DNA of 64,000 nucleotides from Synechococcus sp. (GCA_047285535.1 JBJBDC010000001.1:1664136-1728135); one strand, 5' to 3'. Shown: positions 5,241 through 63,867, numbered from the stretch's first letter. Notes: generated by a model from the sequence alone, not told the origin. Program-made: numbers and translations.

Positions 5241-5258
5241 GGGAACGACCGACAGCGC

Positions 5259-5414: not shown

Positions 5415-5622
5415 GCGAACTCCGCTTGGGAGGAGACAACCCACAAAGCTTGTCCAGCTGCGACACAGCACCAACCACTGCACCGGGATTGTTTTGCACC
5501 AAACCCATTCGTGCACTCTGCATCAATAAATGAATGGCCTGTGCAACTAACTCAGTCCTTTCAAGATTGCATTGATCAATATCCTTGCGAATCAAGGCAT
5601 CAGCCTGTTGCACAGTATTCAA
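5415..5622 (-). pseudogene. Truncated helical mobile-element-type gene fragment
   Basis: ..ADALIRKDIDQCNLERTELVAQAIHLLMQSARMGLVQNNPGAVVGAVSQLDKLCGL; cut at the BCCT fragment. Resemblance to phage/satellite small proteins is from recall only. Confidence 0.3.
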
Positions 5623-5624
5623 CA

Positions 5625-6314: not shown

Positions 6315-6383
6315 AGCGCGCCACGGCTGGCCTGGAAAGAATGGCGGCGGGGCACGGTCACTCCGCAGTGATGCCGCTGCCAA

Positions 6384-7624: not shown

Positions 7625-7948
7625 ATGTCAGAGGCCACCACGTCCCACGTCGAGATGACGTGTCCTCAGGGGTTGACAGATTTGGAGCGGTTAGAGGGGC
7701 CATGGCTGAATTGCATGGGTGCCGGTGAACCAGAAAGTGTTGCCACGGTGATACGCCTGATGCTGGCTCACATGGCGGTTCTCAATAAGAAGGTAATGAG
7801 CGCGATGGTGCTTGACCGCCTGGACATGGAGTTGGGGATGTCCACAACGATGTCCACGCCTCAGGATGTCCACCGGGATGTCCACCGGGATGTCCACGGC
7901 CCCCTAAGCAATAAAAAGCGGACCCTTGAGTCCGCTGCGCTGGAATGA
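7625..7948 (+). CDS. Hypothetical protein running into a repeat array
   Basis: 107-aa ORF whose C-terminus is a translation of the GATGTCCAC repeats. Confidence 0.25.
   Translation: MSEATTSHVEMTCPQGLTDLERLEGPWLNCMGAGEPESVATVIRLMLAHMAVLNKKVMSAMVLDRLDMELGMSTTMSTPQDVHRDVHRDVHGPLSNKKRTLESAALE
7837..7897. repeat. Five direct copies of GATGTCCAC
   Basis: Copies start at 7837, 7849, 7865, 7877 and 7889 (spacing 12, 16, 12, 12). Confidence 0.9.
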
Positions 7949-8225
7949 TTTAAGGGGGCATTCCACCCCCACGAGTCACTTGGGTGATAAGGCTGACTTC
8001 ACCCCATCTCCCTTAAAAGGGTCAGGCAGCAACAGGGGCTGCTTGACGGGAGAAACGTACGATGTTGTTCGCAGTTACGGAATTTGCTCTGACCGAGCAG
8101 GCTTCAGTCACCCTCCTTATGCCCCGTCGAAACCATTGCAGCCCCGAGGGGAGAATGGAGCTGAGCGGAATCGAACCGCTGTCCGAAACACCGGTGTGGA
8201 CCACCTAGTCCGTTCAAGAACGGAC
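7945..8225 (-). ncRNA. ssrA: tmRNA, two-piece (circularly permuted) form
   Basis: On the minus strand the acceptor piece ..GCGGTTCGATTCCGCTCAGCTCCA (ends 8156) precedes GGGGCTGCAATGGTTTCGAC (starts 8145). Tag ANNIVRFSRQAAPVAA*. Outer ends approximate. Confidence 0.92.
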
Positions 8226-8549
8226 AACATCATTCTGACATCAAGCAATGCTCCTTGCCCATCCCCACACGCCAAGTACTCCAGGCCTGAGAGCAAGTTG
8301 GTAACGACTTAGCGAAAAAGCCGCAACAATCAAAACATCTGCGTCTCAGGCCCCAAGAGACGAGACCATCAAAAGCTTCGCATCAAAATCTGTCTGCACA
8401 GATCTTATTTCCGAGCCATATTCAACTCGCTATATGTAGCTTTTCGATCTCCACGAACGATCATCATTAGAGATCAAGCTGAAGGGTATCAGCAACCAGA
8501 CAAATGCTATTTCCCTACCTAGAATTTTCAAGCCATCAAAAAGTACTTT

Positions 8550-18186: not shown

Positions 18187-18268
18187 TGCGGATGGCGAGA
18201 CTTGAACTCGCAAGGCCGAAGCCACACGCCCCTCAAACGTGCGTGTCTACCAATTCCACCACATCCGC
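18187..18268 (-). tRNA. tRNA-Leu(GAG)
   Basis: GCGGATGTGGTGGAATTGGTAGACACGCACGTTTGAGGGGCGTGTGGCTTCGGCCTTGCGAGTTCAAGTCTCGCCATCCGCA; anticodon GAG, variable arm present. Confidence 0.95.
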
Positions 18269-40911: not shown

Positions 40912-41014
40912 GACTAAGGAGCTCAACTATTACGGACTGTGAGTGCTGGCCTCCGAGCAAGGGGCTCAACGAACTGGTCTTCTACGATCGCGAACGAAGA
41001 ATGCTGAAGTTTGC

Positions 41015-41779
41015 GTGGCCATTCCTCTATTGCAGTACGCACCGATCACCCAAAACGCAAGGGTGGCAGCACTGCGTGTCGCATCCGATGAGGTGCCCCG
41101 TTCGAATTCCATGGATATCGCCATGGATGCTGACAACCTGAGCACCGTCATTGAAAGTGCTTACAGGCAGATTTACTTCCATGCCTTCGAGTCAGATCGG
41201 GACGTCAACCTTGAGTCCCAGCTGCGTGATGGTCAGATCACTGTTCGAGATTTCGTTCGTGGGCTTTGCCTTTCCGACACGTTCAAGCGAAGCTTCTATG
41301 GGATGAACAGCAACTACAAGGTGGTCCGTCACCTTGTCGAAAAGCTGTTGGGTCGTAAAACCAGTGGCAAATCAGAGGAGATCTCTTGGTCGATTCTGAT
41401 CGCCACCAAAGGGATCGAGGGCATGGTGGACGCCTTACTGGATAGCCAGGAATACCTTGACAACTTTGGTTACGACTCGGTCCCGTTTCAGCGCAACAGG
41501 GTGATTCCCGGCAAGGAACTGGGAGATACCCCCTTCAACATCACCAGCCCACGATACGACGAGTACTACCGAGGAATTCTTGGCTTTCCTCAGTTTGTCT
41601 ATACAAACGCGCTCAAAGCCAAAACCATTCCTGCCCGAGCCAAAATCAAGCGCGGCGGTTTCCCCGAGGATTATCTCCCCTGGGTTGGTGGTCTGGCCAA
41701 TACAAGTGGGATCAATCCCAAAGGAAGTGTGGATATTGATTACCTCTCCAAGGTTCCCTATCGCAGCATCGGTCGCTGA
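41015..41779 (+). CDS. cpcG: Phycobilisome rod-core linker
   Basis: AIPLLQYAPITQNARV, AYRQIYFHAF, LESQLRDGQITVRDF; GTG start at 41015. Confidence 0.92.
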   Translation: MAIPLLQYAPITQNARVAALRVASDEVPRSNSMDIAMDADNLSTVIESAYRQIYFHAFESDRDVNLESQLRDGQITVRDFVRGLCLSDTFKRSFYGMNSNYKVVRHLVEKLLGRKTSGKSEEISWSILIATKGIEGMVDALLDSQEYLDNFGYDSVPFQRNRVIPGKELGDTPFNITSPRYDEYYRGILGFPQFVYTNALKAKTIPARAKIKRGGFPEDYLPWVGGLANTSGINPKGSVDIDYLSKVPYRSIGR

Positions 41780-43283: not shown

Positions 43284-44708
43284 TTGAAGTCATCCCAGAA
43301 GCCCCTGTCTCTATGGGGCTATGTCGTCATCACCCTCCTCAGCATATTGGCTGGAGGGTGCAGCCAACCTGGTGCAGTTCTTGGTGATCCACCGGCAGAG
43401 CCGGCTTTACCGGCTGGGTTTGCAGTGGGCTTTAACCATCACTCAGGACATCGTTATCGCAGCCCGTTGAACGGTCAATGGAGAAATGGAGACGACCTTG
43501 AACAGATGCTGATCGAGGCCATCGAGTCCGCACAACAGGAAATTTTAGTGGCGGTTCAAGAACTCTCTCTGCCAGGCATCGCCCAGAGTCTTGTCGCGGC
43601 CTCCCAGCAAGGTGTGGAAGTCAAGGTGGTACTGGAAAATCACTACAGCAAGCCCTGGAGCCAACTCCACGACCTTGATCTGAACCGTCATGAACGCCAG
43701 CGACTCAAAAGCCTGAGAGCCCTGGCCGATCAAGATCAGAACGGTCTATTAAGCCCAGAGGAAGAACGGCAAAGCGATGCGTTGCTCATCCTTGAACAGG
43801 CCAATATCCCCTGGATTGATGACACCGAAGATGGCAGTCAAGGCAGCGGCCTGATGCATCACAAGTTTGTCGTGATCGACAGCAAGCGAGTGATCACCGG
43901 AAGCGCAAATTTCACCAGCTCAGGCCTGCATGGTGATGCTGGAGCAACACAAACCCGAGGAAATATCAACCATCTCCTCAGCATTCAAAGCTCAACGCTT
44001 GCGTCTTTATTCAGAGATGAATTTGCCCGGATGTGGGGAGATGGACCTGGAAGATCCAGCGACAGTCGCTTTGGACGAGGAAAAGACTCACAACCCCTGA
44101 AAACCATCAAGGTGGGCTCCGTCATCCTCCAAGTGCTTTTCCCCCCTCATTCCAAAACAACTCAAGGCCATGGTCTTGATATCATTGAAGATCAATTAAG
44201 CAGCGCGAACAAGACAATCGACCTGGCCTTATTTGTCTTTTCTGCGCAGCAACTCACGACCCAACTTGCAGAACGAATCGCAGCTGGAGTGAAGATACGC
44301 CTCCTTGCTGATCCTGGATTTGCCAGCCGCTCCTTTTCAGAAGTGCTTGATCTCCTTGGCGTCGCCCTGCCTGATCGCTTCTGCAAATTAGAGAAAGGCA
44401 ATCAACCATTAACCACTCCCATGAAGGGCATCGGCACCCCACGCCTCGCGCGCGGCGACAAGCTCCATCACAAGTTCGCCGTGATCGACAACAAAACCGT
44501 GATCACTGGATCCTTGAACTGGAGCCCGTCCGCTGCGCACACCAACGACGAAACCCTTTTAGTGATCCACTCACGCCAACTCGCCAAACATTTCACGCGT
44601 GAGATGGATCGGATGTGGCGGGGAGCGGAGCTGGGGATCACACCACGGATTCAGCGGAAACTCGACCACCAACGGATCCGCTGCGGCGCCGGGGTGGAGA
44701 GAATTTAA
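43284..44708 (+). CDS. Phospholipase D family protein (two HKD motifs; competence nuclease-like lipoprotein)
   Basis: HHKFVVID..GSAN and HHKFAVID..GSLN; lipobox AGGC. Confidence 0.88.
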   Translation: MKSSQKPLSLWGYVVITLLSILAGGCSQPGAVLGDPPAEPALPAGFAVGFNHHSGHRYRSPLNGQWRNGDDLEQMLIEAIESAQQEILVAVQELSLPGIAQSLVAASQQGVEVKVVLENHYSKPWSQLHDLDLNRHERQRLKSLRALADQDQNGLLSPEEERQSDALLILEQANIPWIDDTEDGSQGSGLMHHKFVVIDSKRVITGSANFTSSGLHGDAGATQTRGNINHLLSIQSSTLASLFRDEFARMWGDGPGRSSDSRFGRGKDSQPLKTIKVGSVILQVLFPPHSKTTQGHGLDIIEDQLSSANKTIDLALFVFSAQQLTTQLAERIAAGVKIRLLADPGFASRSFSEVLDLLGVALPDRFCKLEKGNQPLTTPMKGIGTPRLARGDKLHHKFAVIDNKTVITGSLNWSPSAAHTNDETLLVIHSRQLAKHFTREMDRMWRGAELGITPRIQRKLDHQRIRCGAGVERI

Positions 44709-45120
44709 GAGATGAGCAGAGTGACTTGTATTCTGGCTTGGGAGTTGTCAACTCTGTTTCACCTATATACAACGGATCACTGCTACTCCCGAAACATCGA
44801 CTGTTAGGCATCTGCAGAATCGCTACTCCATCCCTATTCACAACAACAATCTTGGGACAAAGGTATGACCCTTTACCTGATATCCAGAGATCTTGGCTCT
44901 GACAAACTTCTCTTCACGAAAAGCCGAATCAACATTACAGACATTGCAACAGAATCATGTATGAGGCAATTATTGAGACAGCCAATTAAACTCCAAAAAT
45001 TAATTAAAAAATTCAAATTTAACCGCGCAAACAATAAAAGTCACAAGGCCGCCTTGCAAGATGGAAATCAAATCATTATTAGCAATACATGAATATCACC
45101 TATAAAGAAAGAGCATCAGA

Positions 45121-46029
45121 TCAAACAATTCTCTCAAGAAGCTCCTTCGATTCTTCGAAAACCTTGAGCGCAGAATGTAGGCCTACATTGGTAGCATCAG
45201 TGAGTGTATCAATCATTTCGAAGGTGTCACTAACTGACTCAGCTGACGATGACACTTGATCAGCGATGTCGCTAAAAGAGCTTGCGAGCTCGTTTGCTGT
45301 CTCAATTAAATCAGAGATTTGCTCATCGTAACTTGAATTCATGGACTCTACTGCATTAGCAACGCTATCCTCCATCGCCCCCCCCAATTCCTCTAGACCA
45401 TCCTTTAAAAAGAGGCTAGTGTCTTCTGATTTAGAAGCAAACTCGGAAGACTGCTCAGCTATTAGTTCAATCTTACCGTCTTCAACGAGTTCCCCAAATA
45501 CAGAAGCTTCACCTTCAAGTTTGCTGGGAATATCAGACAACAAAGAGACAACCTTATCTGAAATTTCTCCAGTCAACTCGTTCGCACTCACGGTAGAATG
45601 ATCACTAAGATTGATATATCCTTCCAAGAGTGAAGCGTTGTTAGAGCTAATATCTTGCCATGATGACGCCTGATCAGATCTTATAGTTTGTATTAGTTCG
45701 CCGGATTCTTCAGCATGAGTTTTAGCTGCCTCAATTTGTTCAGCAAACGAGCTGCGAATATTCTCGAGTGTATCAAGAGTTTTTGAACAGTTTTCCCCGA
45801 AACCATCTAAGCGATTGGATATGTCATTTCCCAGCTCTTCAATTCTTTCTAAAGCAAGCCGGACAGAATCTTCAAGATCACTAAAACTAGAATTAAATCC
45901 CTCAAAGCTACCATCTGTGCTTTCTGAAATACTTTGGAGGTTGGCATCTAATTCGTCGATTTCCCTCAAGCAATCAGAAGACTTTTCGGCAAGCTCAATG
46001 GCAATAGTTTCAAATTCTGAATTTGACAT
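45121..46029 (-). CDS. Acidic all-helical (coiled-coil/apolipoprotein-like) protein D
   Basis: 302 aa, E/D/S-rich, regular hydrophobic periodicity, almost no Pro. Confidence 0.8.
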   Translation of the reverse strand: MSNSEFETIAIELAEKSSDCLREIDELDANLQSISESTDGSFEGFNSSFSDLEDSVRLALERIEELGNDISNRLDGFGENCSKTLDTLENIRSSFAEQIEAAKTHAEESGELIQTIRSDQASSWQDISSNNASLLEGYINLSDHSTVSANELTGEISDKVVSLLSDIPSKLEGEASVFGELVEDGKIELIAEQSSEFASKSEDTSLFLKDGLEELGGAMEDSVANAVESMNSSYDEQISDLIETANELASSFSDIADQVSSSAESVSDTFEMIDTLTDATNVGLHSALKVFEESKELLERIV

Positions 46030-46069
46030 GATAAAAATTGGACGAGAAGTTTAGACGATAGCCAAGAAG

Positions 46070-46981
46070 TTACTTAAACATACTTGGGAGGCTGTCATAA
46101 AGGCTAGTGACAGAATCAACAAGCGGCTCGAGCTCTCCAACGACCTCTTCTACAAGCCCGCGAATTACGTCAGATTCATCTTTTTTAGAGATCATGTCTG
46201 AACCAGCACGAGTTATCCCATCTGTAAGCGTATTTACGCATTCTTTGACAATCGAATCTATCTCCTCCGTGATTTTAGATTTGAAATCAGAAGAAATCTC
46301 TTCGAGTTTTTCCGACACTTTCTCGCTAGCAAGGTTGGTGAGAACATCAATAAATAACTCACTGCTACTTTCACCATCTGAATTAAAGAGGTCAAGAAAT
46401 GAGCTCACGTCATCAGCGACACCATTAATTGCATCGTCTAAAAGCTTATGAGATTGGTCAATCTGGCCTTGTGAAGCCTTAATCACTGCCTCAAAATGTC
46501 CGGATTGCTCATCCAAGTCAACCTTAACCTTTTGGAAGAGCTCGTTATAAGTATCAAAAGATTTTTGCAGATCAGAAGAGTGACTAACGGCAGAATCCCT
46601 ATTGTCAACAATTTCGCTCAACCGCTGTGTAAGGGATTCGTGCAATTGAGAGGCATCCTGCCTTATGGTATCAACTGAAACTTGGAGATCACTCGAGCTG
46701 CTTTCAATAAGACTATTAAGTTCATCAAAAGATGATTCTAATGAATCAATTAAATCCTTGGATTCATTAACTTTGGAGTCTATTTTAGACTCCATGTCCG
46801 CAGCCTTATCACGAAGAGAAGCAATAAGGGACTCAGCAAGATCCTTTTTGGCATCAATTTCATCTTGATATTCAGAAATCTTGTTTTGAATCGAGGCAAT
46901 AGTATTGGCTGATTCCTTAATCTGATTTGGAAGCTCTGAAGCAGCTTGGGTGATGGACTGAACTGATTGAGCGAGTGTCAT
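46070..46981 (-). CDS. Acidic all-helical protein C
   Basis: 303 aa, same composition as D. Confidence 0.8.
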   Translation of the reverse strand: MTLAQSVQSITQAASELPNQIKESANTIASIQNKISEYQDEIDAKKDLAESLIASLRDKAADMESKIDSKVNESKDLIDSLESSFDELNSLIESSSSDLQVSVDTIRQDASQLHESLTQRLSEIVDNRDSAVSHSSDLQKSFDTYNELFQKVKVDLDEQSGHFEAVIKASQGQIDQSHKLLDDAINGVADDVSSFLDLFNSDGESSSELFIDVLTNLASEKVSEKLEEISSDFKSKITEEIDSIVKECVNTLTDGITRAGSDMISKKDESDVIRGLVEEVVGELEPLVDSVTSLYDSLPSMFK

Positions 46982-47021
46982 GGGTCTATAGAATAATCAG
47001 GATCAATTGAAATTGGAGTAT

Positions 47022-48014
47022 TTAGCAGACAATATCAAGACCATCATTGATTGTTTCCAACACTTCTCCAACTGTTTTCATGGCAGGAAATATTGGTGCC
47101 ATGACTGCACTAACCGATGAGCCTGCTGCCATCGTGACCATCGTTGTTCCTAATTCTACTAATAGAGCGTCCAAAGTATTTTCCAACGCCTCTTGAAAGG
47201 AATCACGCAACTGCTGTTGGATATCATCGTTTAAGCCTGATACAGAATCACTAACAAATGTTGCAAAATTATCTATCATCTCTTCGCCAGCTGATGTACA
47301 AGACTCATCAAAATTGTTAAGCCCATCCTTAAGTTGAGTGGAAAGATTTAAAAGAGGTTCTTCAATCAGACTAGTTTGTTTGTCTGTTAAAGCAGCGATA
47401 GCCGTGTCATAAGCCGAGCCTGAAGAAGTTCTAAGTGAATCTAGAAAATCCTGGACAAACGCATCAAAATTTGATGATATTTTGTTCATCAGATTGATCA
47501 AATCATCGTTGGCTTCCGTGGCTGTTGAATGAATTACATTGACACCATCTGAGAGCAAAGAAATCGCTGACAAAGTATTTTCAATGGATACATTTGTCTC
47601 ATCTCGAAATTGCTCAATAATTGCAATGATTTCGTTAAACGAAGTGGTATATTCACTTTCTTGAGCACTTAACAAAGCCTGGGTATTAGATATTAAAGCT
47701 GTTGCATTGTCAAAATTATCGCTTAATTTAGACTTGCCAGCTTCAATCGACGTATCAAATCTCTCCATTGCTTGGTGAAAATTGCTGGATAGGGATTCAC
47801 TATCTGAATGAAATTTGGAGAGTGACTCGAGCAAGATATTATATTTGTCACGCAGGGCTTGATTTATGCCGTCCTGATTCGACTCTGTTTCATTCAGATC
47901 ATTTAAAGCACTTTCAAGCAAGTCATCAGAATTATCAAGTATAGCTCCAAGTTCATTCAGCTTTTGTGTAGAATCCTCAAGGTCTGATGCATATCCAGAA
48001 AGGTCAATAGTCAT
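47022..48014 (-). CDS. Acidic all-helical protein B with apolar C-terminal segment
   Basis: 330 aa; LGTTMVTMAAGSSVSAVMAPIFPAM near the C-terminus. Confidence 0.8.
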   Translation of the reverse strand: MTIDLSGYASDLEDSTQKLNELGAILDNSDDLLESALNDLNETESNQDGINQALRDKYNILLESLSKFHSDSESLSSNFHQAMERFDTSIEAGKSKLSDNFDNATALISNTQALLSAQESEYTTSFNEIIAIIEQFRDETNVSIENTLSAISLLSDGVNVIHSTATEANDDLINLMNKISSNFDAFVQDFLDSLRTSSGSAYDTAIAALTDKQTSLIEEPLLNLSTQLKDGLNNFDESCTSAGEEMIDNFATFVSDSVSGLNDDIQQQLRDSFQEALENTLDALLVELGTTMVTMAAGSSVSAVMAPIFPAMKTVGEVLETINDGLDIVC

Positions 48015-48052
48015 GATTTAGATCCTAAGTCCATTAAATTGTGAGTTAAAAA

Positions 48053-48928
48053 CTAGGCAATAAGTTCAATGACAGGCTTTATTTCATCGTAAATGTCTTG
48101 TACCTTTTCGGTAAATCCGAGAACTTCCTCAATCTTGGAAGTGTATTGCGCTATGTCATCAAGGCCAAGTTCTTTAAGTGTTTCAGTAGCTTCCTTCCAC
48201 GAAGAGCCACCTTCCGTGATTTGATTAACGATATCTAAGCCAATTATCGATTCAATAGTTGACAATTTTTCTTGATGAAGAGACTTAATACTATCAAGAA
48301 GGTCCTCGCTAAGCGATTTGGCTGCCTCCATCATTGAGGTAAGCTTTTGAGTTAACTCGTCTGTCCTCGTTGTCAAAAGGTTCTTAAGTCCCGATAGATT
48401 TTCGACCGATTCATCAAAACCAACCGTAGTTTTCTCAATTGTTGACACGATAGAAGTGTTAATGGTTTCTTTATCTTGATCCATTGTAGAAATAGTGTCA
48501 TTAAAACTACGCTCAAGCTCCTTGACGCGCTCAAGATAATCTGAGGAAGATGTAATAGCAATTTGAGATGCATTTTCAGTAGACTGGGAGCTAGTGGTCA
48601 TCACTTCGGAGTAAGCAGTTAGCTTAGAATTAATTCCTTCTTCGATAGATTCAATCTTTGCGGCAAAATCAGACAACCTTTCATCTAACTCAGTGATTTT
48701 GCTGTTTGTAGTAGCTCCTAGTGACTCTATTCGCTGCGCTAGTTGGTTGACTAATATTTGATTTTGGCTCATGCTTTCCTTTGCACTTTCTGTTGACTCA
48801 GTGATAATATCTAAAGCTGCATTCATGGTTATCTTATGCTCCTCAATTCCCTTAGAATAAGAGTCCATGCTATTATTAAGTTTCATCATCTTGTCCTGAG
48901 TTTGCTGGATCAATGCATCAAGGTCCAT
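48053..48928 (-). CDS. Acidic all-helical protein A
   Basis: 291 aa, S/T/E-rich helical periodicity. Confidence 0.8.
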   Translation of the reverse strand: MDLDALIQQTQDKMMKLNNSMDSYSKGIEEHKITMNAALDIITESTESAKESMSQNQILVNQLAQRIESLGATTNSKITELDERLSDFAAKIESIEEGINSKLTAYSEVMTTSSQSTENASQIAITSSSDYLERVKELERSFNDTISTMDQDKETINTSIVSTIEKTTVGFDESVENLSGLKNLLTTRTDELTQKLTSMMEAAKSLSEDLLDSIKSLHQEKLSTIESIIGLDIVNQITEGGSSWKEATETLKELGLDDIAQYTSKIEEVLGFTEKVQDIYDEIKPVIELIA

Positions 48929-49482
48929 AGCAAGAACAATTCATATTGAAACCATTAGCAACATCCACCAAGAAGGATGGCAGGCTTTATACTTCTTAAC
49001 CAAAGGCCAATTGCTCCTGTGGCCAATAAATATCAATCTAAGACACAAAAACCATTATCTTCATTAGCAGTGTCTCCTGAGGGCAGGAGTGCAATCACTA
49101 AGTATTGCTCAACGTTTAAAACTACAAAAAACAAATAAAGAGCCGCCAACTCGGAAGTTAAAGAATAAGCAACCGATTTGGGTTGAGATGGTTAAATTAG
49201 CCGATTTAATGCATGAAACCCAGTTGAGTTCAGTCTATTAATGATTTCGAGACTTGGCTTAGCTTGTTAACACCACCTCAGAACAAAAGTCGGATTCTCA
49301 CCCTTAAAGAACTATATGGATTGTTTTTTTCAGCAAGGACAAGCTGAAAATGGTTTGACGGCTGGTGTGTCGCTCTAAGGTACTTACTACCTAACATATC
49401 TGAAGAAAAGCTCAAAAAGCCGAGCTACCTAGCCTCAGTTATGCCTTTACAGGGTACCAATCATAATTAGTGCGAGTCGATA

Positions 49483-50304
49483 TCAATACAAAGGATTGGG
49501 ATCTCTGTGGTTGCGAACCGCGATCGCTAGTGACACATCATCACCACTACCTTCAGCAGAAATTTGTGCTAAACCAGTATGTATTTCGTTCATATCGTGA
49601 AGTTCCGCCACGCCAGCACAAAGCTGCAGGTAGTCGTCATCAGTGGCGCAGGATTTACGCACTCCATCTGTGCTGAGTATGAGTGCTTGTAGTGGATCGT
49701 AGGCATCTAGACGATGCAGCTGAGCTCGCCCTGACCAGCGATGTTGATCCATTGCACTGCAGAGACTTTCGGTCGCTTCACTAAGTTCCAGTTCAGATAT
49801 GGTTTCCTGGCTGAGAATGATAGATGCACCACTACGTTCAACCGCGGCAAGATCCCAATCGCCAACTCCCGTGGTTCCCCACCAACCCGGAGCAAGCAGC
49901 ACTAAGCCAATCGTGCATCCATACGTAAGAGACTTAAACGGTTGGTTCAACGGCGTGCGCTTTTGCCAGTCTGCTTCAATTACGTCTAGCCAAGATCTCT
50001 GTATAGCTTCAGGGAGATCAAGCTGAAGCAAACGTAGCCATCTCTCTACAGCAGTAAGAGGGGTCTGTTGCAAATGCTTAGCAACCACCTGCTGTGCAGT
50101 AGCACATGCCAATGCACTGCCTACATGGCTAAGCCAATAGCGGCTACCGCCGTGGCCGTCAGAAACAACCATCATTTGGAACTGGTCGACGCCAGCCTGG
50201 AGAGTGCAACAAAGTGAGGAATCTTGGCAGGGCTTACCCTGACGCTTGTGAGCAGAACCAATCACAGTGCATGCTCGAGTTTGTAACCATCCTGAACTCA
50301 CCAC
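49483..50304 (-). CDS. PP2C-like protein phosphatase (TerY-P type)
   Basis: VIGSAH..PCQD, VSDGHG, VGD, LSTDGV, GSGDDVS. Confidence 0.88.
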   Translation of the reverse strand: MVSSGWLQTRACTVIGSAHKRQGKPCQDSSLCCTLQAGVDQFQMMVVSDGHGGSRYWLSHVGSALACATAQQVVAKHLQQTPLTAVERWLRLLQLDLPEAIQRSWLDVIEADWQKRTPLNQPFKSLTYGCTIGLVLLAPGWWGTTGVGDWDLAAVERSGASIILSQETISELELSEATESLCSAMDQHRWSGRAQLHRLDAYDPLQALILSTDGVRKSCATDDDYLQLCAGVAELHDMNEIHTGLAQISAEGSGDDVSLAIAVRNHRDPNPLY

Positions 50305-51032
50305 ATTAAGGGGCCGACGTCATCGATCGATTTGTTGAGTTCTGGTGGCAGGTCTGGGAGCCGGATGTTGGCATCCGATTCTGGGCCGGCTGGCGACAAA
50401 CGTGTGGTTGGCATCGATGTAGCCCCCACCACACATGTCGAGGCCCACTGAAGGTATTGAGAGAGCGTAGTAGCGTTGCTCGCCTGCAACGGCCGGCGGC
50501 CTGAGCGCTCATCGCCAGCAGGTGCAGGTCCAATGAATTGCTGCAGCACTTCGAGGTCGGCATCGTGACCCATTGCGATCGCGAGGCGTACTGCTTTTTG
50601 AGCCCAAGGCAAGTGCATTAACTGAGAAAGTCCTGCTTCAAAGTCGTCGGTAGGTTGACCATCGGAAATCAAAACCAGCACCGGTGGTAAAGCCCGCTCA
50701 TCCATTGGCGGAGATTGCAAAACACTGGCTACCAGACCAAGGGCGGCGCCCATGGCCGTTGTACCACCCGCCTCAAGATCCTGCCATTGAAGATTCTGAA
50801 CCGGTGTGGCGTCTTCTAAATGCCAGGCTGCCTGATCTGCGAAACATACAACACGCACCAAAATTTTCGCTTCTGGGTTCTCATTTGCCACCTCAGACAT
50901 GGAAGGCAGTGATTGGCGGATTGCCTGATTCAATGCCTGCATTTTTCCCTGAGCCTCCATTGAACCGGAGCAGTCGCATATATAGATGAAATGTAATGGC
51001 CGACTGCTAAGGCGAACTTTAGGGAAAGGCAT
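50298..51032 (-). CDS. vWA domain protein (TerY-like)
   Basis: MIDAS DCSGSM, GGTTAMG, LISDGQPTD. Confidence 0.88.
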   Translation of the reverse strand: MPFPKVRLSSRPLHFIYICDCSGSMEAQGKMQALNQAIRQSLPSMSEVANENPEAKILVRVVCFADQAAWHLEDATPVQNLQWQDLEAGGTTAMGAALGLVASVLQSPPMDERALPPVLVLISDGQPTDDFEAGLSQLMHLPWAQKAVRLAIAMGHDADLEVLQQFIGPAPAGDERSGRRPLQASNATTLSQYLQWASTCVVGATSMPTTRLSPAGPESDANIRLPDLPPELNKSIDDVGPLMW

Positions 51033-51035
51033 GAT

Positions 51036-52361
51036 TTAAGGGCAAATTACCAAAACAGTTCCCATGTGACTATCAAGACGATGAGTAGAAGCGAGATTAG
51101 AGGTTTTTCCAGGCTCTAGTGAAATTTGTTGACCATTTATTAAGCTTACCTGCCAAGGATGGCGACTAAGATTTTTGAGGCCGAGCAAGCTGGGAACACT
51201 CGGATGTGGAACAATTACGGCAATAGGGTGATCAATAGTTTCTCCTGATAAGACATCAAAATGATGCGGATGCAATTCATTTCCAGCCGAAGCATAAACG
51301 ACTCCATGCGGCAACTTTAAAAGCGTTGGATTAGGCAATGATCCTCTACAACTCCAACAAATCATCTCTTCTTCAGCGTCACAGAAGACCTCCTGACCAC
51401 AGTGAGGGCACAATTGTCGTTGATCGAGGCACTGGGCTAAAGCCTGCTTCCACTGACCAGTTAATGAACGTTGTTCAGGTTGGCGCAGCCCAAGTGACAA
51501 GCTACGTTCAAACAACTTCTGAATAATGCGAGGATAAATAGGCCAGGTGATGAGAGCAGCAATATGTTCAATAGGATCAGGTCGATTGCTCGCATTAATG
51601 GGATCAAAGATAAAAAGTGCCTCTTCGGCATAAAGACACCGCCTGGCCGGTTCGTCTAAACAACGGATCTCTAGCTCGCGGGCACCACGAAAGGGATCAT
51701 GCCGTGTGAGCAAACGAAACAGAAGAACGGCTAACGAGAACAAATCACTACTGGCACCGGGAAGAGCTTTCCCCAAAAGAACCTCTGGCGCAATAAACCC
51801 GGGGGTACCTAAAATTGTGCCATGCCGCTGTCCATCAATATCAACATTGTCGTTGTCACAAATCAAAATCCGTCCGGTACTCGGCTCAAGAAATATATTT
51901 CCGAGAGAAATATCCTTGTAACAAAGTCCTTTCAGATGCAGCTGATGAAAAGCCTCTGCCAAGCGAAAGCAGGCCTTAAGGACATTCTGCAGACTGATTT
52001 CTAAATCACCAACAGCGTGCAAGTGGGATCCGACGAAGCTGGGAGGTCTCAACGGCATCAAATAACCAATTCCACAAAAATCATTATTCTGCGATTCCAA
52101 TGTTGCTAGTGGCCAAAGGAAATCAGCATTTGGTGAACCAAACCTAATGCTTTGGCGCAAGCGTGAATGCAATCCAGGGTCTCTAGCGATACAGCTGGGG
52201 AAATACCATTTCAAGGCAAGCAGTTGACCGCTGCTAGCCTTGTCTAATTCAACGACATAAACTTGACCTTGGCTTCCAGAACCTATTCCCTTTAATATAC
52301 GTAGTGGTGTGTCTAGACCCTTGAATTTTAAACATGGTCCTCGAGGCAACAACCAGGTCAT
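51036..52361 (-). CDS. Ser/Thr protein kinase (TerY-P type) with Zn ribbon
   Basis: IGSGSQGQVY, ALKWY, YKDISLGN, CDNDN, GTPGFIAPE, CPHC..CWSC. Confidence 0.9.
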   Translation of the reverse strand: MTWLLPRGPCLKFKGLDTPLRILKGIGSGSQGQVYVVELDKASSGQLLALKWYFPSCIARDPGLHSRLRQSIRFGSPNADFLWPLATLESQNNDFCGIGYLMPLRPPSFVGSHLHAVGDLEISLQNVLKACFRLAEAFHQLHLKGLCYKDISLGNIFLEPSTGRILICDNDNVDIDGQRHGTILGTPGFIAPEVLLGKALPGASSDLFSLAVLLFRLLTRHDPFRGARELEIRCLDEPARRCLYAEEALFIFDPINASNRPDPIEHIAALITWPIYPRIIQKLFERSLSLGLRQPEQRSLTGQWKQALAQCLDQRQLCPHCGQEVFCDAEEEMICWSCRGSLPNPTLLKLPHGVVYASAGNELHPHHFDVLSGETIDHPIAVIVPHPSVPSLLGLKNLSRHPWQVSLINGQQISLEPGKTSNLASTHRLDSHMGTVLVICP

Positions 52362-54720: not shown

Positions 54721-56271
54721 TTGGCAGAGACCTTCAGGGGGATAGCAGTGGAAGGCAATTTCTTTGCTGAATTAACAAAGTCAAACGGTAGACTTCTGAA
54801 GAAACTTAACAATAGCGCCGAGCAAGTCTCAATTGGAACCAGCATTGATTGCGATATCATTATTGATAAAAATATCTATCCAACAGTTTCCAGGGTGCAA
54901 TCGTTTATTAGAATCATTAAAGAAAGTGAGACAATTACAGCTTATATTTTCGATGCAGATTCACGAAATGGGACATATGTGAACGATTTGCGAGTAACAA
55001 ACAAACAGGAGCTGAAAGATGGAGATAAAATCAGTCTTAGCAAACATATCCATGCATGCGAACTTAATTTTAACTACCTCAACACTGAAGATCAGATTCT
55101 GAAGCCTCTGGAAAACTACTACCCAGACAGTAATAAGAAAGACGCTAGAGGATCATCTCCTGTGAAGCTTAAAGAAACAACTCAGAAGGAAAGTACTAAA
55201 AGTAATACAAGTCGGCTTCAAAAGAATGCTCCAATCAATCTCAATTCAATGCTAGCAGAGACTAATAAAATGAAAAACAATCACGAAAAACTAGTAAAAT
55301 CAGATAAAATTGAAAACACAGAAGTTGATGAAAAACAAATAATTTCACAGGGCAATGCGCTTATAATGGACATAAGCAACGAAACAGTACAAAGCAATCC
55401 AAAGCAGACGAATATCAGTATCAGAAAGACATCTCAAGACTCAATAGACATAAATAATACTATTCATAACTCCCAAAAACCGTTAGAATTTGATAGTGAT
55501 CGAGACGATAATGATAGTTTGTTTGTTATTTCAGAAGGTCTAATCGACGCAAAGTCAATAGCTGTCGACTCCCAGGCTTCTCAGATTGCATACTGCTCAG
55601 ACAATGGATATTTAAATTTGCAAAAATTTGGACAATCAGAACCTTTTGCTCATACGGATTTGGGTCAAGCTTCTACGGCAATACGATTTTCAAAGATTGG
55701 AGAATTAATTGCAATCGCAATGCAAAATAAAGATATAGCTATCTGGGATATCAGTCTAAGAAACAAAATAAGTGTGCTACAGGGTCATAAATTACGTATC
55801 ACGGATATTTCATTTAGCCCTAATTCAAACAACTTGGTAAGCTGTAGCTTGGATAAGACAATTCGCTGTTGGGATATACGCTCTGGAAAAGAGCAGAAAG
55901 TAATACGTACTAAGGGTCTTGGGGCTACAGCTATTGACTATATTCAAAATGGTACAAAAATAATTTCTGGAGGAAAAGATCGAGTCCTTAGGTTATGGGA
56001 TTATAATAGTATGGAGGAAGCGCGTCAATTAAGCGCTAACAAGATAAATGCCGGAATCGAGAAGATTTGTTGCTTAGATCAAAGGAATGAGATTCTTGTT
56101 GCAACGGCAGATCATATTATTCACAAACAATCACTTAAGGCCATTGGCATAGACTTGAGCAGTGTGAATTATCCAAGACAAAAATCGATACTTTCAATAT
56201 GCAATAGTGGTAAGCTCTTAAGTCTACTTGATGCAACTGGCCGGCTACAAGGATGGAATATTAATTGTTGA
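54721..56271 (+). CDS. FHA domain plus WD40 repeat protein
   Basis: FHA-like VSIGT..VSRVQ..DSRNGTYVN; WD40 GHKLRITDISFSP..SLDKTIRCWD and SGGKDRVLRLWD. Confidence 0.85.
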   Translation: MAETFRGIAVEGNFFAELTKSNGRLLKKLNNSAEQVSIGTSIDCDIIIDKNIYPTVSRVQSFIRIIKESETITAYIFDADSRNGTYVNDLRVTNKQELKDGDKISLSKHIHACELNFNYLNTEDQILKPLENYYPDSNKKDARGSSPVKLKETTQKESTKSNTSRLQKNAPINLNSMLAETNKMKNNHEKLVKSDKIENTEVDEKQIISQGNALIMDISNETVQSNPKQTNISIRKTSQDSIDINNTIHNSQKPLEFDSDRDDNDSLFVISEGLIDAKSIAVDSQASQIAYCSDNGYLNLQKFGQSEPFAHTDLGQASTAIRFSKIGELIAIAMQNKDIAIWDISLRNKISVLQGHKLRITDISFSPNSNNLVSCSLDKTIRCWDIRSGKEQKVIRTKGLGATAIDYIQNGTKIISGGKDRVLRLWDYNSMEEARQLSANKINAGIEKICCLDQRNEILVATADHIIHKQSLKAIGIDLSSVNYPRQKSILSICNSGKLLSLLDATGRLQGWNINC

Positions 56272-58408
56272 TATTAGACTTATGGATGTCTTCCATGATC
56301 TGAGTCAGTGCATCTAACTGACGACTCATTTTTTTTATATCTATCCTGGTTAGTTTATGATCAGAATCTGCCGAAAGTAAACCATCTGAGCCTATATCTA
56401 CAGTGCTCTTTTGGTGTGAGGAGATATTTGAGGATGTTGCCAATCGACCTTTGAAAAGTTCCTTATGTTGAACAATCTCAGCCAGCAGATATGATCGAAT
56501 CTCATCAATACGAATTTTCATATATGTGATATAATAATTTCTAACTTCTTTCTTGAGTTTTCCTAGAGACTCTTCGCATTTTTGGTCAAGCTCTGAATTA
56601 TAAGTAAAAAACATTAGGATAAGAATTAAGGGTAAAATTATAGGAAGCGCTTCTTTTTTTACATTGTCAAAGTTAAACAAACCCGCAATTATTGAAATAA
56701 TTCCAACTGAGGCTAGGACCTGGCTTCTTAATTGTTTCCAGATATAGCCCGGAAAGTTCGGGAAGAGGATGTAAGTAGAAGTAACGGGAGGAGCCACATC
56801 TGTTTGCAAGATCTTACTAAGATCAAAAGAAAGATTAGGAGTTGTTGACTGTTTTTCATCATTAGCAATGTAAACATTTTTTTCGGTGCTTTGAAACGCT
56901 TCGGAATAAAGACCCTTAAGGCTGTCACTATCATTCTCTTTACCAAGCAAAACTGCATCTAGAGTTGAAGTACACCAATTCATAAGATGACCATGGCACC
57001 AATCAAGCATATGGTTATGAAGATATTCAGTATCCGGTTCATTCTTATGCTGTGCTAAATAAATAATCAATTTATTTCCATTGCGCTTCCTAATTTGTGT
57101 CAATCCTGAAAGTTCGCGATCTACGGATCTCCTCAATGCATTTGGGGAATATTCATCAAGAAATGTCTCTTTCCCTTCCTCTAATGAACTCTTAAGCGTT
57201 TCAATAAAATTATCATAACGAGACACAAAATCAGAACCAAAAGAATTAGCTGCCCCTTGGACTTTGGTCAGTTTAGGATCGTCAGAATTAGTATTCATAC
57301 TCCTCTCATTCTCTAAGTGAGCATCTAAAGTCTCCTCATACAACTTGTGTAGGCTAGAAGTAATCCAGTAAATAGAGCGGGAAATGGAGTTCAACCAATC
57401 TTGGTCATTGCTAGACCCTCTAATTACATTGATACACTCATCGTATTCAGGCTGAGCCGCTGGAACCAGCATTGTCGTCCCATCAGAAGGAACAAAGGGT
57501 GACAAGTAAAGAGGGAAGAAAGAAATCATCGGACTAAGTTCAGCAATATAAGAGCTGAGCTCCGAAACATGATCATTACCAGCAGTCAATATAGAACAAT
57601 TAACAACTACTATAAAGTTAGAAGCTGAACATGAAGACAATAGATATTCAATTAGCTTTAGCACAGATTCGTGATCACTATCTGACAATAAAAGCAAAGC
57701 TGTTGTCACAGCTATGGAATAATGGGAAACATCAGGGCACTCTATATACTTTGTGTTTCTATTATTAATAACATTAAGACTGGCAGAGCCATTCATAGGA
57801 GCATGAGCTCCTAAAGTTATTTCATCATTGGCTGTGAATTGTATCCATTGATTTTGCTGACACTTTTTATTGTTGACAAAAGTCCCATTAAGGCTCCCCA
57901 GATCTCGCAAAAATGTATCATTCTGGGAATTAATTTTAACTTCCGCATGAATTCCGCTTATTAGCGTCAAGTATTTGTCTACAGCCAACGAGCACTTTTG
58001 CTTATTTCTACCAATGGTTTGAACAGAACCTGGAACCAAATCAAGCCTTTTTGACTCATAAACCCCTTCCGAGTTCACAAATTTAATATACATTTCTACT
58101 GAATTATCAATCCTTAGGTGACTTAACCTGTCGTCATCAATCTTGATGTCGAACTCATTGATTTGATTCGACGCAAGCAAGTCCTTTAACAAAGCATATT
58201 CATCTTCTGATTGTGCGCGCAACAACAGAGACCGGGATCGTTCTGTGAGGCAATTTTTGCACAAAGACAAATCGTCAATGGTTAAATCGAGAAATTGCTT
58301 TATTGGCGAATCGTTGACTATTTTCTCTAATTTGACAAGCAACCTTTCGAGTCTACGTGTGACCTTGGCAGTGTCATCCATGTCGCGATTATTCTCCAGG
58401 ACATTCAT
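56261..58408 (-). CDS. FHA domain membrane protein with dynamin-like layout, no visible P-loop
   Basis: FHA TIGR..ISGIH..DLGSLNGTFVN, then an alpha/beta segment, a long helical region, a hydrophobic hairpin and a C-terminal helix. Confidence 0.75.
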   Translation of the reverse strand: MNVLENNRDMDDTAKVTRRLERLLVKLEKIVNDSPIKQFLDLTIDDLSLCKNCLTERSRSLLLRAQSEDEYALLKDLLASNQINEFDIKIDDDRLSHLRIDNSVEMYIKFVNSEGVYESKRLDLVPGSVQTIGRNKQKCSLAVDKYLTLISGIHAEVKINSQNDTFLRDLGSLNGTFVNNKKCQQNQWIQFTANDEITLGAHAPMNGSASLNVINNRNTKYIECPDVSHYSIAVTTALLLLSDSDHESVLKLIEYLLSSCSASNFIVVVNCSILTAGNDHVSELSSYIAELSPMISFFPLYLSPFVPSDGTTMLVPAAQPEYDECINVIRGSSNDQDWLNSISRSIYWITSSLHKLYEETLDAHLENERSMNTNSDDPKLTKVQGAANSFGSDFVSRYDNFIETLKSSLEEGKETFLDEYSPNALRRSVDRELSGLTQIRKRNGNKLIIYLAQHKNEPDTEYLHNHMLDWCHGHLMNWCTSTLDAVLLGKENDSDSLKGLYSEAFQSTEKNVYIANDEKQSTTPNLSFDLSKILQTDVAPPVTSTYILFPNFPGYIWKQLRSQVLASVGIISIIAGLFNFDNVKKEALPIILPLILILMFFTYNSELDQKCEESLGKLKKEVRNYYITYMKIRIDEIRSYLLAEIVQHKELFKGRLATSSNISSHQKSTVDIGSDGLLSADSDHKLTRIDIKKMSRQLDALTQIMEDIHKSNINN

Positions 58409-60699: not shown

Positions 60700-61755
60700 C
60701 AAAGTCATCTATTTTGCAAGAACGTTTGGCATACTTCAGCAGCTAATGATCAACGCTAAGTCCTGCTACTGATGCAAGGTCTGCAGAAGTATTTCCCATA
60801 GCAAGAGCGTGTGAGAGGAACGAATGCCTTTGGGAATACAAACTCTGACAGGTATCCCCAACCGTCTCTGAGAGCGTTTCCATACTTGCTCAAGCCGCTG
60901 TCATCCAAATGCCCATAAGACCTTGGGGTTACGAACACAAGACCACTCTTGGTACAGAGACCAAGTGCCTCACTCGTGGAGCGATGCTCTCTCAGCATCT
61001 CCACCACCTGGGGGGTGATCGGAACCACTCTGTTCTTCCCAGTCTTGGTGGATGCCCAAATCCTCTTGTGGGTAGCAGTCCCTTCTCTCTTCAACGTCTT
61101 ACTGATCCAAAGTTCAGCGTCATCCAACCGAACGGCATCCCTCGTCAAACCAATCAGTGCTGAATTCCGCAGTCCTGTACTCATCCACAGCAAGAAGGAG
61201 GGGTAGAACCATTCCTCATGGGTCTTGAGGTGTGCCAGAACCTGTTGAATCTCTTCCTTAATGAGAACCTCCTGATGAACACTTCTCGTTGGCACCTTGA
61301 TCACCGCTGATAGCAACGCCTTGTTCTTCGGTTGAATCCTGCGAATAATGCTGAGGATCATGGACTGGGTAGACGGCCAGCCCCCTCTTATCCATCCACT
61401 CCACAAACCTCCGAACTTCCAGTGTTGTCTTAAGGGGACTTCCAAACCTCAAGACAGGCCGATAGGCATGGATCACACGTCCTTGCTTGGTCTGCTCCAT
61501 CAACTGCTTGAGTGCCTCGATCAAATCCAAATCCTGACCATCCACCAGTGGTCGGTTACGGTTCAAACTCAGATCCAGGTCACCCTGCTGGTCATCACTC
61601 CAGATCTCAGCAGTGATCGCCTCTGCTCTTGCAATCGCAACCGCAACCGGGTAGAGCCAACGACCCAACCTGTAGATCCTCCGTTCTTCCCCATCGATCC
61701 GCACTCGAACCACGATGCTGCCATTGTTTGTCCGCAGCGAAGGTCGTTTCCTCAT
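60700..61755 (-). pseudogene. Frameshifted tyrosine recombinase/integrase
   Basis: Arm-binding-like N-terminus (61258-61755 frame); TGLRNS and KTGKNR (60756-61445 frame); YSQRHSF..LLKYAK in a further frame. Confidence 0.85.
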
Positions 61756-62447: not shown

Positions 62448-62985
62448 GCAACATCGAAGGATTTTGCTTCAACGAAAACTGCTCACGCAAATCCTTTGAA
62501 AGGATCGACACTTTTGCCATGCTCAAAGTCGCATTTAATGAAACTTTAAGCAATTTGGAGTTCATCTGAGGCATAGAGCCCCTCTCAACCACACATCCAA
62601 AACCAAATTAATCGTCAACGAATACGCTCTGGCGATGGAGTAGAGAGGGGCTGAGAAATCGGGAGACTCGCTTGAGTTATGACTGGGGGGGGGGTTAGCA
62701 ACTCTGTTAGACCTATAGGCGTTGAGACCAGGACTTCCAAAACATCGTCTTTGAGGCATCTCCAGAAGAGCTTCTGCGTCGCCGTCTCAAAGACGAGGGA
62801 ATGGAAGCAATCAATTCAACAAGTCTTTTTATAAAGGCCACAGAAAATGGATCGAAACAAAAATTAGTGTCTTGAAAATTTTACGCTATACTCTTCAAGA
62901 AATCAGTTCGAATTCGCTTGGAAATACGAGCAATTGAATACAATGAGATCATAACCATGCTGTGTATTGCGCTGGACTGTTGATC

Positions 62986-63867
62986 ATGCCTGTTCACGCC
63001 TTCCGACATCTGGCATTGACTTCGCACTTGATTCTAGGAGTGACTATAACGGCTTGTTCGGCGCCTAAAAACACCCTTACTCTGGAAGAAAGAATTGAAA
63101 AATACAGCATTGCAATCAAGCAAAACCCACAGGATGCTGATGCATTGTTCAATCGTGGTCAAGCAAAGATTGAGGCAAAAAAATATCAAAAAGCGCTTAA
63201 TGATCTCCAGGCAGCGATTAAGATCGATCCCAAGAATGCCCCCGCGTTCTACAGCAGTGGTTACGCAAAGCGTAAATTAAATGATTTCAAGGGTGCGATA
63301 GCCGATTACTCAAAAGCAATTGAGATGCAGCCTGAGCACATTGGCGCACACTTCAATCGCGGTTACGCCAAGCATGAATTAGGAGACTACCAAGGGGCAA
63401 TTAATGATTACAACAAAGTGATAGATTTTTATCCTCAGCATTACGCCGCCTACACTAGACGAGGAATTGCAAAAGAGAGACTAGACGATTATCAAGGAGC
63501 AATCAATGATTACACCAAAGCAATAGAAATCAACCCAAAACATGGGGAAGCCCAAACTAAGCTAAACAAGGCAAAGGATACATTAAAAAAATCAAAAGCG
63601 AAACCAACGGCTACGCCAAGACCAACGCCTACGCCAAGACCAACGCCTACGCCAAGACCTACGCCTACGCCTACGCCTACGCCTACGCCTACGCCAAGAC
63701 CTACGCCTACGCCAAGTCTCACTCCGACGCCAAGACCTACGCCAAGTCTCCCTCAGACGCCAAGAGGTACGCCAAGTCTCACTCCGACGCCAAGACCTAC
63801 GCCAAGTCTCCCTCAGACGCCAAGAGGTACGCCAAGCCTCACTCCGACGCCAAGACCAACTCCGTAA
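62986..63867 (+). CDS. TPR repeat lipoprotein with Pro/Thr-rich tail
   Basis: Lipobox ITAC; repeated [20 protein letters not shown] units; PTPT tail. Confidence 0.85.
63603..63864 (+). repeat. Nested tandem repeats (6, 18 and 60 bp) encoding the PT tail
   Basis: cctacg runs, ccaacgcctacgccaaga units and a 60-bp unit repeated about 2.5 times (63721-63780 nearly identical to 63781-63840). Confidence 0.9.

Follow-up and report, generated by a model that had tools for sequence, protein, structure and literature searches.

A conserved cassette of four acidic, length-constant helical proteins in a Synechococcus low-GC island and in Acidobacteriota

This work describes a cassette of four genes, referred to here as A, B, C, and D, in a 64,000-nucleotide stretch of DNA from Synechococcus sp. 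(GCA_047285535.1, JBJBDC010000001.1:1664136-1728135; this whole stretch is called the window below). The four open reading frames (ORFs) are co-oriented on the minus strand. Gene A (48053..48928) comes first and encodes 291 amino acids (aa), followed by B (47022..48014, 330 aa), C (46070..46981, 303 aa), and D (45121..46029, 302 aa). The A-B spacer (48015..48052) is 38 bp long, and the B-C (46982..47021) and C-D (46030..46069) spacers are each 40 bp; all three are on the same strand and are mutually unrelated in sequence. These lengths and gaps agree with those given in a preliminary description made from the DNA sequence, which read the products as possible ancient paralogues forming a length-matched hetero-oligomeric rod or filament or, alternatively, as a multicomponent pore-forming toxin or a WXG100/LXG-like carrier.

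All four products are acidic and poor in both basic residues and proline. Asp plus Glu account for 18 to 23% of residues, Lys plus Arg for 4 to 9%, and Ser for 12 to 17%; A, B, C, and D contain 1, 3, 3, and 1 prolines and carry net charges of −28, −44, −36, and −51, respectively, which makes D the most acidic of the four. The earlier statement that the proteins lack obvious pairwise identity is slightly overstated: A and B can be aligned colinearly over 294 aa at 24.8% identity (pairwise E value of 1.5e-4), and C and D share 25% identity across 264 aa with a weaker pairwise E value of 0.003. No 19-residue window in any of the four reaches a mean Kyte-Doolittle hydropathy of 1.6, which argues that they lack an N-terminal signal-like or transmembrane (TM)-grade segment and agrees with the view that no signal peptide is obvious (no dedicated signal-peptide predictor was used). 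As had been noticed, B alone has an apolar C-terminal segment, its best 19-residue mean being 1.42 (residues 291 to 309) compared to 0.68 to 0.76 in A, C, and D. Residues 291 to 330 of B (47025..47144, minus strand) hold an apolar Gly/Pro motif comprising G298, P307, and P310 and then ..INDGL. The apolar stretch itself is short (∼20 residues), contains conserved Gly, Pro, and Lys, and is less hydrophobic than a typical TM segment; these properties do not support the suggestion that B inserts into membranes.

Fourier analysis of hydrophobicity bears out the continuous hydrophobic spacing noted originally. Each whole window protein displays a single dominant period of 3.55 to 3.59 residues with a spectral power of 120 to 292, far above the maximum of ∼58 ± 13 obtained with shuffled sequences. 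Power at a period of 3.67, the 11-residue repeat of the apolipoprotein type, is only 8 to 12. In each protein, the phase of the periodicity is nearly constant for the first 125 to 200 residues and then jumps to a second coherent segment. These phase shifts are consistent with the helix breaks of AlphaFold2 (AF2) monomer models, at residues 212 to 217 of B and 171 to 185 of D. The model of B consists of helices at residues 6 to 211, 218 to 305, and 308 to 329 (pLDDT of 66, pTM of 0.26) and that of D of helices at residues 3 to 170 and 186 to 301 (pLDDT of 57, pTM of 0.30). Around the helix axis, large hydrophobic residues, which make up 25 to 31% of the content overall, are gathered in ∼3/7 of the angular sectors, while Asp and Glu dominate the remainder; the central sector is 50 to 77% hydrophobic and nearly charge-free. 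Because the hydrophobic residues are confined in this way, the seam suggests a coiled coil or helical bundle rather than a broad lipid-binding face. From these models and the periodicity, we propose that each chain is an acidic, all-alpha protein comprising an amphipathic helix of ∼170 to 210 residues, a break, and a second amphipathic helix of ∼90 to 115 residues.

Relatives of B were gathered with phmmer against 1.84 billion cluster representatives, which retrieved 46 proteins at an E value of ≤0.001. Three of these fall below 1e-30, with identities of 46%, 46% (a fragment), and 30%, and most of the others are 322 to 341 aa long and align end to end. The C terminus is the best-conserved element of the B family: across 29 sequences, G298 is invariant and P307, P310, and L326 are each at least 90% conserved, giving the consensus G...T.A..P..P.L.AAK.....INDLL. 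One 329-aa homologue (P0051) bears the source label "gas vesicle protein," which may be an automatic carry-over from generic helical families. A genome scan seeded with 4 B relatives returned 24 stretches matching the pattern, 4 of which were confirmed as loci (L001 to L004). All lie on Acidobacteriota metagenome-assembled genome (MAG) contigs, three from Vicinamibacteria and one from Thermoanaerobaculia.

In 4 of 4 loci, the B relative is the second of four co-oriented genes encoding proteins of ∼295, 327, 310, and 303 aa. On a Vicinamibacteria MAG contig, L001 (positions 472 to 8289) has two such quartets, both complete and arranged in tandem; the second is more divergent, with shorter gaps (8 to 10 bp) and a weaker periodicity in its B protein. 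The A-B-C-D order, whose absence elsewhere would have counted against the preliminary description, is thus kept in five further quartets across all four retrieved loci, and the conservation of a whole four-gene cassette in another phylum makes the window quartet more than a chance observation. Neither the window nor the loci contain extra copies of any type outside the cassettes. The conserved order, the completeness of the tandem pair, and the lack of stray copies together point to a requirement for one protein of each type. A 330-aa ORF in L002 (626-1618) was considered as a fifth member and rejected, since it is Arg-rich, has a net charge of +63, contains 40 prolines, and is apparently a spurious frame.

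The matched lengths noticed in the window hold across the family, type by type. Over the six quartets (n = 6 per type, mean ± SD), A proteins measure 295.2 ± 2.0 aa, B proteins 327.3 ± 1.7 aa, C proteins 309.3 ± 3.3 aa, and D proteins 303.2 ± 1.3 aa, and this constancy is maintained at just 12 to 28% sequence identity. Net charge is negative in all 24 quartet proteins (−11 to −66), compared to −22 to +7 for the products of neighboring genes in the same loci (the spurious Arg-rich ORF excluded), which argues that acidity is a trait of the family and not of the host proteome. A coherent period of 3.54 to 3.64 residues (median 3.575) is detected at z > 5 in 23 of the 24 proteins; only B from the second quartet of L001 falls short (z of 1.4). 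There is no proline punctuation of the helices. Two features of the window copies did not carry over to their relatives. The early emphasis on a D/E/S-rich composition holds across the family for the acidity but not for serine, which makes up 3 to 9% of the 20 acidobacterial homologues; serine enrichment is peculiar to the low-GC copies in the window, and its reading as a mark of phospho-substrates was rejected. Likewise, intergenic gaps vary between 8 and 67 bp in the five quartets outside the window, so the near-equal spacers were discarded as a meaningful feature, and the 38/40/40-bp spacing looks incidental.

In all four types, the best-conserved blocks are the two termini (the first 20 and the last 20 to 40 alignment columns), and the middle is variable. 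The alignments are nearly gapless: type D has single-residue gaps only, and 7 of 8 internal gap runs in the A-type alignment are exactly 7 residues long.

Assignment of the window proteins to types was examined by all-versus-all BLASTP and by an IQ-TREE phylogeny of the 24 proteins from the six quartets. Window B, C, and D each have as best match the protein at the same position elsewhere, over 303 to 312 residues (E values of 7e-16, 7e-10, and 9e-8, respectively), and window A ties an A-type with a C-type protein at 3e-6. In the tree, the six C proteins form a clade (support of 97/94), as do the six D proteins (98/95) and the five acidobacterial A proteins (98/97), and the six B proteins lie on one side of a weakly supported branch (69/81). 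A tree uniting all six A proteins is not rejected by the AU test (delta lnL of 2.9, p-AU of 0.134). Window A aligns to the five first-position acidobacterial proteins and shares the A-type length (291 aa) and the C-terminal motif ..KPV.E.. (..KPVIELIA in the window), and it probably belongs to the A type. As judged from sequence, then, window B, C, and D fit the quartet family by best match, tree, length, and motif, and A fits by position, length, and C-terminal motif but not by its place in the tree.

Alignment of the type profiles to one another with hhalign yields end-to-end colinear matches (scores of 82 to 109 over 252 to 304 columns). Together with the shared architecture, these in-register, full-length alignments suggest that the four types are ancient paralogues, as was originally supposed, but the scores are only modestly above those of reversed-alignment controls (54 to 87). 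Given how high these controls score, much of the between-type signal appears to derive from composition and periodicity.

Searches of Pfam, NCBIfam, and PADLOC gave no match above a curated cutoff for A to D. Only subthreshold matches to generic long helices were obtained (Apolipoprotein, ApoLp-III, ATG17-like, Baculo_PEP_C, DUF1664, ZorA tails, JetC/SMC arms, tape-measure, and WXG100_2), those from PADLOC being generic coiled-coil matches. The Pfam lists at an E value of ≤1 are complete for A and B and comprise the best 25 matches for C and D. Profiles of the types were also compared to Protein Data Bank (PDB) sequences, for which the lists are complete at ≤0.001 for A and C and comprise the best 60 of 772 (B) and the best 60 of 200 (D) matches at ≤1. 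These matches include a designed three-helix bundle, ApoA-IV, ApoA-I, a tape-measure protein, a ZorA tail, hairpins of methyl-accepting chemotaxis proteins (MCPs), and viral fusion cores. PspA/IM30 and Vipp1 are absent from the Pfam, NCBIfam, and PDB profile matches listed. The tape-measure families TMP_2, TMP_3, and Tape_meas_lam_C score 13 to 18 bits against cutoffs of 23 to 41, the neighboring genes scanned include no phage structural genes, and tblastn of B against 50,697 phage records and of a B relative against plasmids gave no match.

Structural and profile searches were similarly unproductive. Foldseek of the B model against the PDB returned no matches, and that of the D model returned 11 at an E value of ≤10, none of them significant (the best being 2ch7 at 0.49 and 5nnv at 0.66). 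The best ESM Atlas scores, 0.77 and 0.76, are under the useful range. In a word-indexed homology search, A and the D profile retrieved the window's own protein alone and the B profile retrieved 6 proteins including itself; because the D-profile search missed homologues from its own query alignment, this index seems ill-suited to low-complexity helices. Rfam gave no match at 44 to 61 kb of the window. No library model in Pfam, NCBIfam, or PADLOC and no solved relative exists for any of the four types. In the accessible parts of the literature on TerY-P triads, FHA/Hsp70/PDZ neighborhoods, and paralogous coiled-coil operons (PMC10542128, 10.64898/2026.10.19.760177, and PMC7159879), we did not find such a quartet described.

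In the acidobacterial loci with upstream sequence, the quartet is preceded by a conserved gene set (L002 2393-8850, L003 19-6443, and L004 1-5896; the flanking sequence of L001 is too short for comparison). In L002 and L003, it closes a co-directional operon with 4-bp stop/start overlaps at gene boundaries. The operon opens with a small FHA protein (seen in L002). Next come a protein of ∼630 to 650 aa, of no known family and with one TM segment, and a 509-aa Hsp70-like ATPase that lacks the full lid (HSP70, 5e-72). They are followed by a ∼178-aa protein whose N terminus carries a TM segment, by an FHA-TM protein of 428/441 aa, and by a PDZ protein in which an N-terminal hydrophobic stretch reaches the 1.6 threshold in L003 and L004. 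The quartet genes, A to D, come last. L004 contains the same gene set at 25 to 44% identity with two additional genes before A, and it has a LuxR-type gene after D and, on the opposite strand, a Ser/Thr kinase and a double-FHA protein. In all three acidobacterial loci with upstream sequence, then, FHA genes accompany the quartet in its operon or locus, alongside Hsp70-like and PDZ genes. The single-TM protein of no known family, 651 aa in the copy searched, has no match among PDB sequences. The acidobacterial cassette lies in a syntenic chromosomal operon between respiratory-complex genes, not in a variable island, and its upstream gene set appears itself to be an uncharacterized envelope module.

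In the window, the cassette lies inside a low-GC island (39 to 46% at 44 to 50 kb, versus ∼52 to 60% at 6 to 44 kb). Upstream on the same strand is a contiguous TerY-P-type triad (49483..52361, minus strand) made up of a Ser/Thr kinase (52361..51036; Pfam Pkinase, 6e-16), a vWA gene (51032..50298; Pfam VWA, 2.8e-7), and a PP2C gene (50304..49483; Pfam PP2C_2, 6.5e-23). In the accessible text of PMC10542128, a TerY-P triad is defined as vWA, PP2C, and a Ser/Thr kinase with a C-terminal zinc ribbon, and the module is described as defense associated. The window trio has this domain make-up, with Pkinase, VWA, and PP2C_2 above cutoff and contiguous on one strand; the Cys-rich, zinc-ribbon-like stretch after the kinase domain (residues 315 to 348) has only subthreshold Pfam matches. 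In PADLOC, the kinase matches the mad6 and PD-T4-6 models and the vWA and PP2C proteins match none. Among the genes scanned in the window are no established TerY-P partners (McrBC/CoCoNuT or Ter genes, for instance), and the quartet does not figure as part of the TerY-P systems in the accessible text of PMC10542128.

Between the triad and gene A is a 554-bp noncoding region (48929..49482, minus strand, 5′ of A) holding a terminator-like hairpin (49426..49409, minus strand) just after the PP2C gene, which suggests that the quartet probably has its own promoter. A second such hairpin (45041..45059, minus strand) lies ∼60 bp beyond the stop codon of D. Both come from a consensus scan only, and terminator-like sites are not more frequent than in shuffled sequence (4 versus 3.1 ± 1.8), so they constitute weak evidence. 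Two FHA genes occupy the same island: an FHA-WD40 gene (54721..56271, plus strand; 516 aa with FHA and WD40 repeats; Pfam FHA, 2.4e-12) and a gene for a 715-aa FHA protein (58408..56261, minus strand; Pfam FHA, 7.3e-14) with its FHA domain at residues 131 to 200, a middle region without an assigned domain, and hydrophobic segments that include a pair at 560 to 601. Against PDB sequences, the latter matches in its FHA domain only. These two genes are arranged tail to tail with an 11-bp overlap (56261-56271). The theme that recurs across phyla is FHA (phospho-threonine-binding) proteins, some of them membrane anchored.

Several other features of the window were recorded. Two overlapping ORFs of 229 and 165 aa at 60756-61755 (minus strand), the first with a partial Phage_integrase match (profile positions 2 to 86 of 172), resemble an integrase gene that has been split or has decayed, and they would mark the low-GC island. 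On the left border of the GC drop, the ORF at 43284-44708 (plus strand) encodes 474 aa; its product has two PLD/HKD motifs and a lipoprotein-like hydrophobic N-terminal stretch that ends in ..AGGCS, and it matches DrmC-type models in PADLOC (1.7e-21). A 301-aa ORF at 62962-63867 (plus strand) has several TPR repeats and then a long Pro/Thr-rich tandem repeat up to its end. Outside this region, a second low-GC stretch (positions 1 to 4000, 44%), possibly another island, lies at the left end of the window. A tmRNA gene (7931-8245, minus strand; marked with an asterisk by ARAGORN; tag peptide ANNIVRFSRQAAPVAA), a tRNA-Leu(GAG) gene (18187-18268, minus strand), and a phycobilisome-linker gene (40943-41779) jointly suggest a picocyanobacterium-like host.

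Our favored reading, held with moderate confidence and about evenly poised between right and wrong, is that the quartet encodes a 1:1:1:1, length-defined, hetero-oligomeric helical rod with specialized ends that works with phospho-threonine (FHA) signaling. Co-assembly is suggested by the one-of-each rule, the length locking, and the geometry of the seams. With their apolar seams in contact, the four chains would pack as a long helical bundle of set length, on the order of tens of nanometers. Its conserved ends would be the working parts, with four distinct N-terminal and four distinct C-terminal motifs forming the two ends, and the Gly/Pro-containing apolar C terminus of B may serve as a docking or anchoring element for a membrane or a partner. 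In Acidobacteria, the rod genes would form the far end of an operon that also encodes membrane-anchored FHA, PDZ, and Hsp70-like proteins; the Synechococcus window would have received a bare cassette by lateral transfer, in a low-GC island where a TerY-P triad and two FHA genes lie nearby. From the arguments above, we infer how the rod is shaped, what its ends do, and that it is linked to FHA signaling and to the TerY-P triad.

A number of observations weigh against this favored reading. Both AF2 monomer models are of low confidence and have no significant structural neighbors. Window A has a very long branch and is placed beside the B group in the IQ-TREE phylogeny (85/78). The reversed hhalign controls extend over 153 to 269 columns at the scores given above, and the case for paralogy is not clean. 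With so much acidity and so little Lys and Arg in all four chains, interchain salt bridges would be scarce and the chains mutually repulsive; counter-ions or a basic partner would be needed. The neighborhoods amount to only three effectively independent contexts, with L002 and L003 being close relatives. Homologues of the Hsp70-like, PDZ, 651-aa, and 178-aa proteins are absent from the 64 kb of the window, which shares only the FHA domain with the acidobacterial operon. Finally, the association with FHA and kinase genes in the window is the neighborhood of a single island, in which a terminator-like hairpin separates the triad from the quartet.

Four other explanations were weighed, none of which has specific backing other than by analogy. 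Tripartite alpha-pore-forming toxins are likewise laid out as paralogous helical components in tandem, and Hbl, Nhe, AhlABC, and SmhABC of the ClyA superfamily resemble the quartet in being all-helical proteins of ∼300 to 400 aa with a hydrophobic element in only some of them. The quartet could accordingly be a multicomponent membrane-permeabilizing system, either such a toxin or an abortive-infection effector, in which B inserts by its conserved apolar C terminus and the kinase, PP2C, and FHA proteins may exert control. Its place in a laterally acquired island adjoining a TerY-P triad, described as defense associated in the accessible text of PMC10542128, would suit this explanation. We nonetheless consider it unlikely, and the toxin proposal of the preliminary description found no specific support: no ClyA/Hbl/Nhe-type chain occurs among the PDB profile matches listed, and no such Pfam family occurs among the matches listed for A to D, those for A and B being full lists. 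The AF2 models show very long single helices instead of a compact bundle with a head but are of low confidence. The apolar element of B (∼20 residues, mean hydropathy of 1.42) is C-terminal, short, Gly/Pro-rich, and broken by conserved Gly, Pro, and Lys. The quartet proteins are also far more acidic than the ClyA superfamily, and net charges of −28 to −66 disfavor binding to anionic membranes; signal-like N-terminal segments were not found; PADLOC matches are generic; and the acidobacterial cassette resides in a syntenic chromosomal operon beside respiratory-complex genes. A second explanation, similarly improbable, dispenses with the hetero-rod and treats the four products as independent amphipathic coat proteins of the apolipoprotein, apolipophorin-III, phasin, or LEA kind on lipid bodies, granules, thylakoids, or gas-vesicle-like surfaces. 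ApoA-I, ApoA-IV, ApoE, and apolipophorin-III share long amphipathic helices with the quartet, and ApoA-IV, ApoA-I, ApoLp-III, and designed helical bundles are the best-scoring matches of all four profiles among those listed. Pfam Apolipoprotein is matched at ≤0.001 in 21 of 29 B-family members, and D has a subthreshold match to the sll1863 stress-protein domain (26.5 versus 35 bits). The source label "gas vesicle protein" of one B homologue would also fit. All of these matches are far below curated cutoffs, however (PF01442, Apolipoprotein, 28.7 bits at best versus 90; PF07464, ApoLp-III, 19.3 versus 36.3). Unlike apolipoproteins, the quartet has a period of 3.57 rather than 3.67, at which there is almost no power, along with a narrow apolar face and no proline punctuation, and coating proteins would not obviously need length locking to within 1 to 3 residues or exactly one of each type.

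The conserved termini and variable middle of all four types would also suit helical proteins exported by an envelope apparatus, along the lines of WXG100/LXG/Esp proteins of the type VII secretion system or of type III axial or translocator proteins, with the termini acting as export or assembly signals. The acidobacterial operon does encode an FHA-TM protein of YscD/TagH/GltG layout, a periplasmic PDZ protein, and an Hsp70-like ATPase, and D has weak matches to WXG100_2 and EsxA. The WXG100 matches are below cutoff (WXG100_2 in D, 17.3 versus 27 bits; TIGR03930, 14.7 in B and 10.8 in D versus 44.85), and the quartet proteins exceed WXG100 proteins threefold in size, so the WXG100/LXG-like carrier proposed at the outset is not borne out. 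No FtsK/EssC-type ATPase is found among the proteins scanned at 40 to 64 kb of the window and in the neighborhoods of L002 to L004, nor do the locus genes examined, or the part of the window that was scanned, include a type III-type export ATPase or gate. The membrane partners are missing from the window as well, and we regard export as a slim prospect. Least probable of all, and in our estimation very remote, is a polyanionic rod that acts through its charge, as a nucleic acid mimic or decoy for basic binding proteins or as a cation-buffering scaffold. Extreme negative charge is indeed kept on the solvent-facing helix sectors, and the window cassette lies in an island; this explanation draws on composition alone, though, with no likeness to known DNA-mimic proteins seen and no restriction or nuclease genes adjoining the quartet in the acidobacterial loci.

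The favored reading of a length-defined hetero-oligomeric rod has partial counterparts among known systems. The Mce heterohexamer needle is a multiparalogue coiled-coil assembly from tandem genes; like the quartet, it has paralogous genes in fixed tandem order and long helices that need matched length. Sequence matches of the quartet to the helical regions of MCE and Mce4_CUP1 are weak and far below cutoff (20.7 versus 140.5 bits), and the quartet differs in having no MCE beta-barrel, no TM anchor, four components instead of six, and strong acidity in all chains. The MCP cytoplasmic domain (2ch7) and the SMC arm (5nnv), the top, nonsignificant structural neighbors of the D model, are hairpins of ∼300-residue chains in which two long helices pair with other chains into four-helix bundles. 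In contrast to these, the quartet lacks sensor, HAMP, and ATPase head domains, and its MCPsignal match reaches 15.8 bits versus a cutoff of 34.6.

A more ambitious form of the favored reading is possible but, in our view, doubtful. It would make the quartet an undescribed cross-phylum apparatus: a heterotetrameric, length-calibrated, polyanionic ruler or strut with two distinct specialized tips. FHA signaling and, in the complete version of the system, an Hsp70-like ATPase would govern its assembly or docking at the membrane. The cassette would be mobile enough for an island in a marine cyanobacterium to have captured it alone, with its control then rewired to a TerY-P kinase/phosphatase switch.

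Gene order, stoichiometry, acidity, and length are near-constant between Cyanobacteriota and Acidobacteriota, and such constraint usually marks geometry as the function. Should A to D indeed build a single rod, the quartet would be a new, compact, and genetically portable example of a length-defined hetero-oligomeric coiled coil. It would help to explain how envelope-associated, FHA-controlled machines are built and could serve as a scaffold for protein engineering. The quartet is also a concrete candidate client for FHA-TM/Hsp70-like operons and for TerY-P triads, both of which are widespread and poorly understood.

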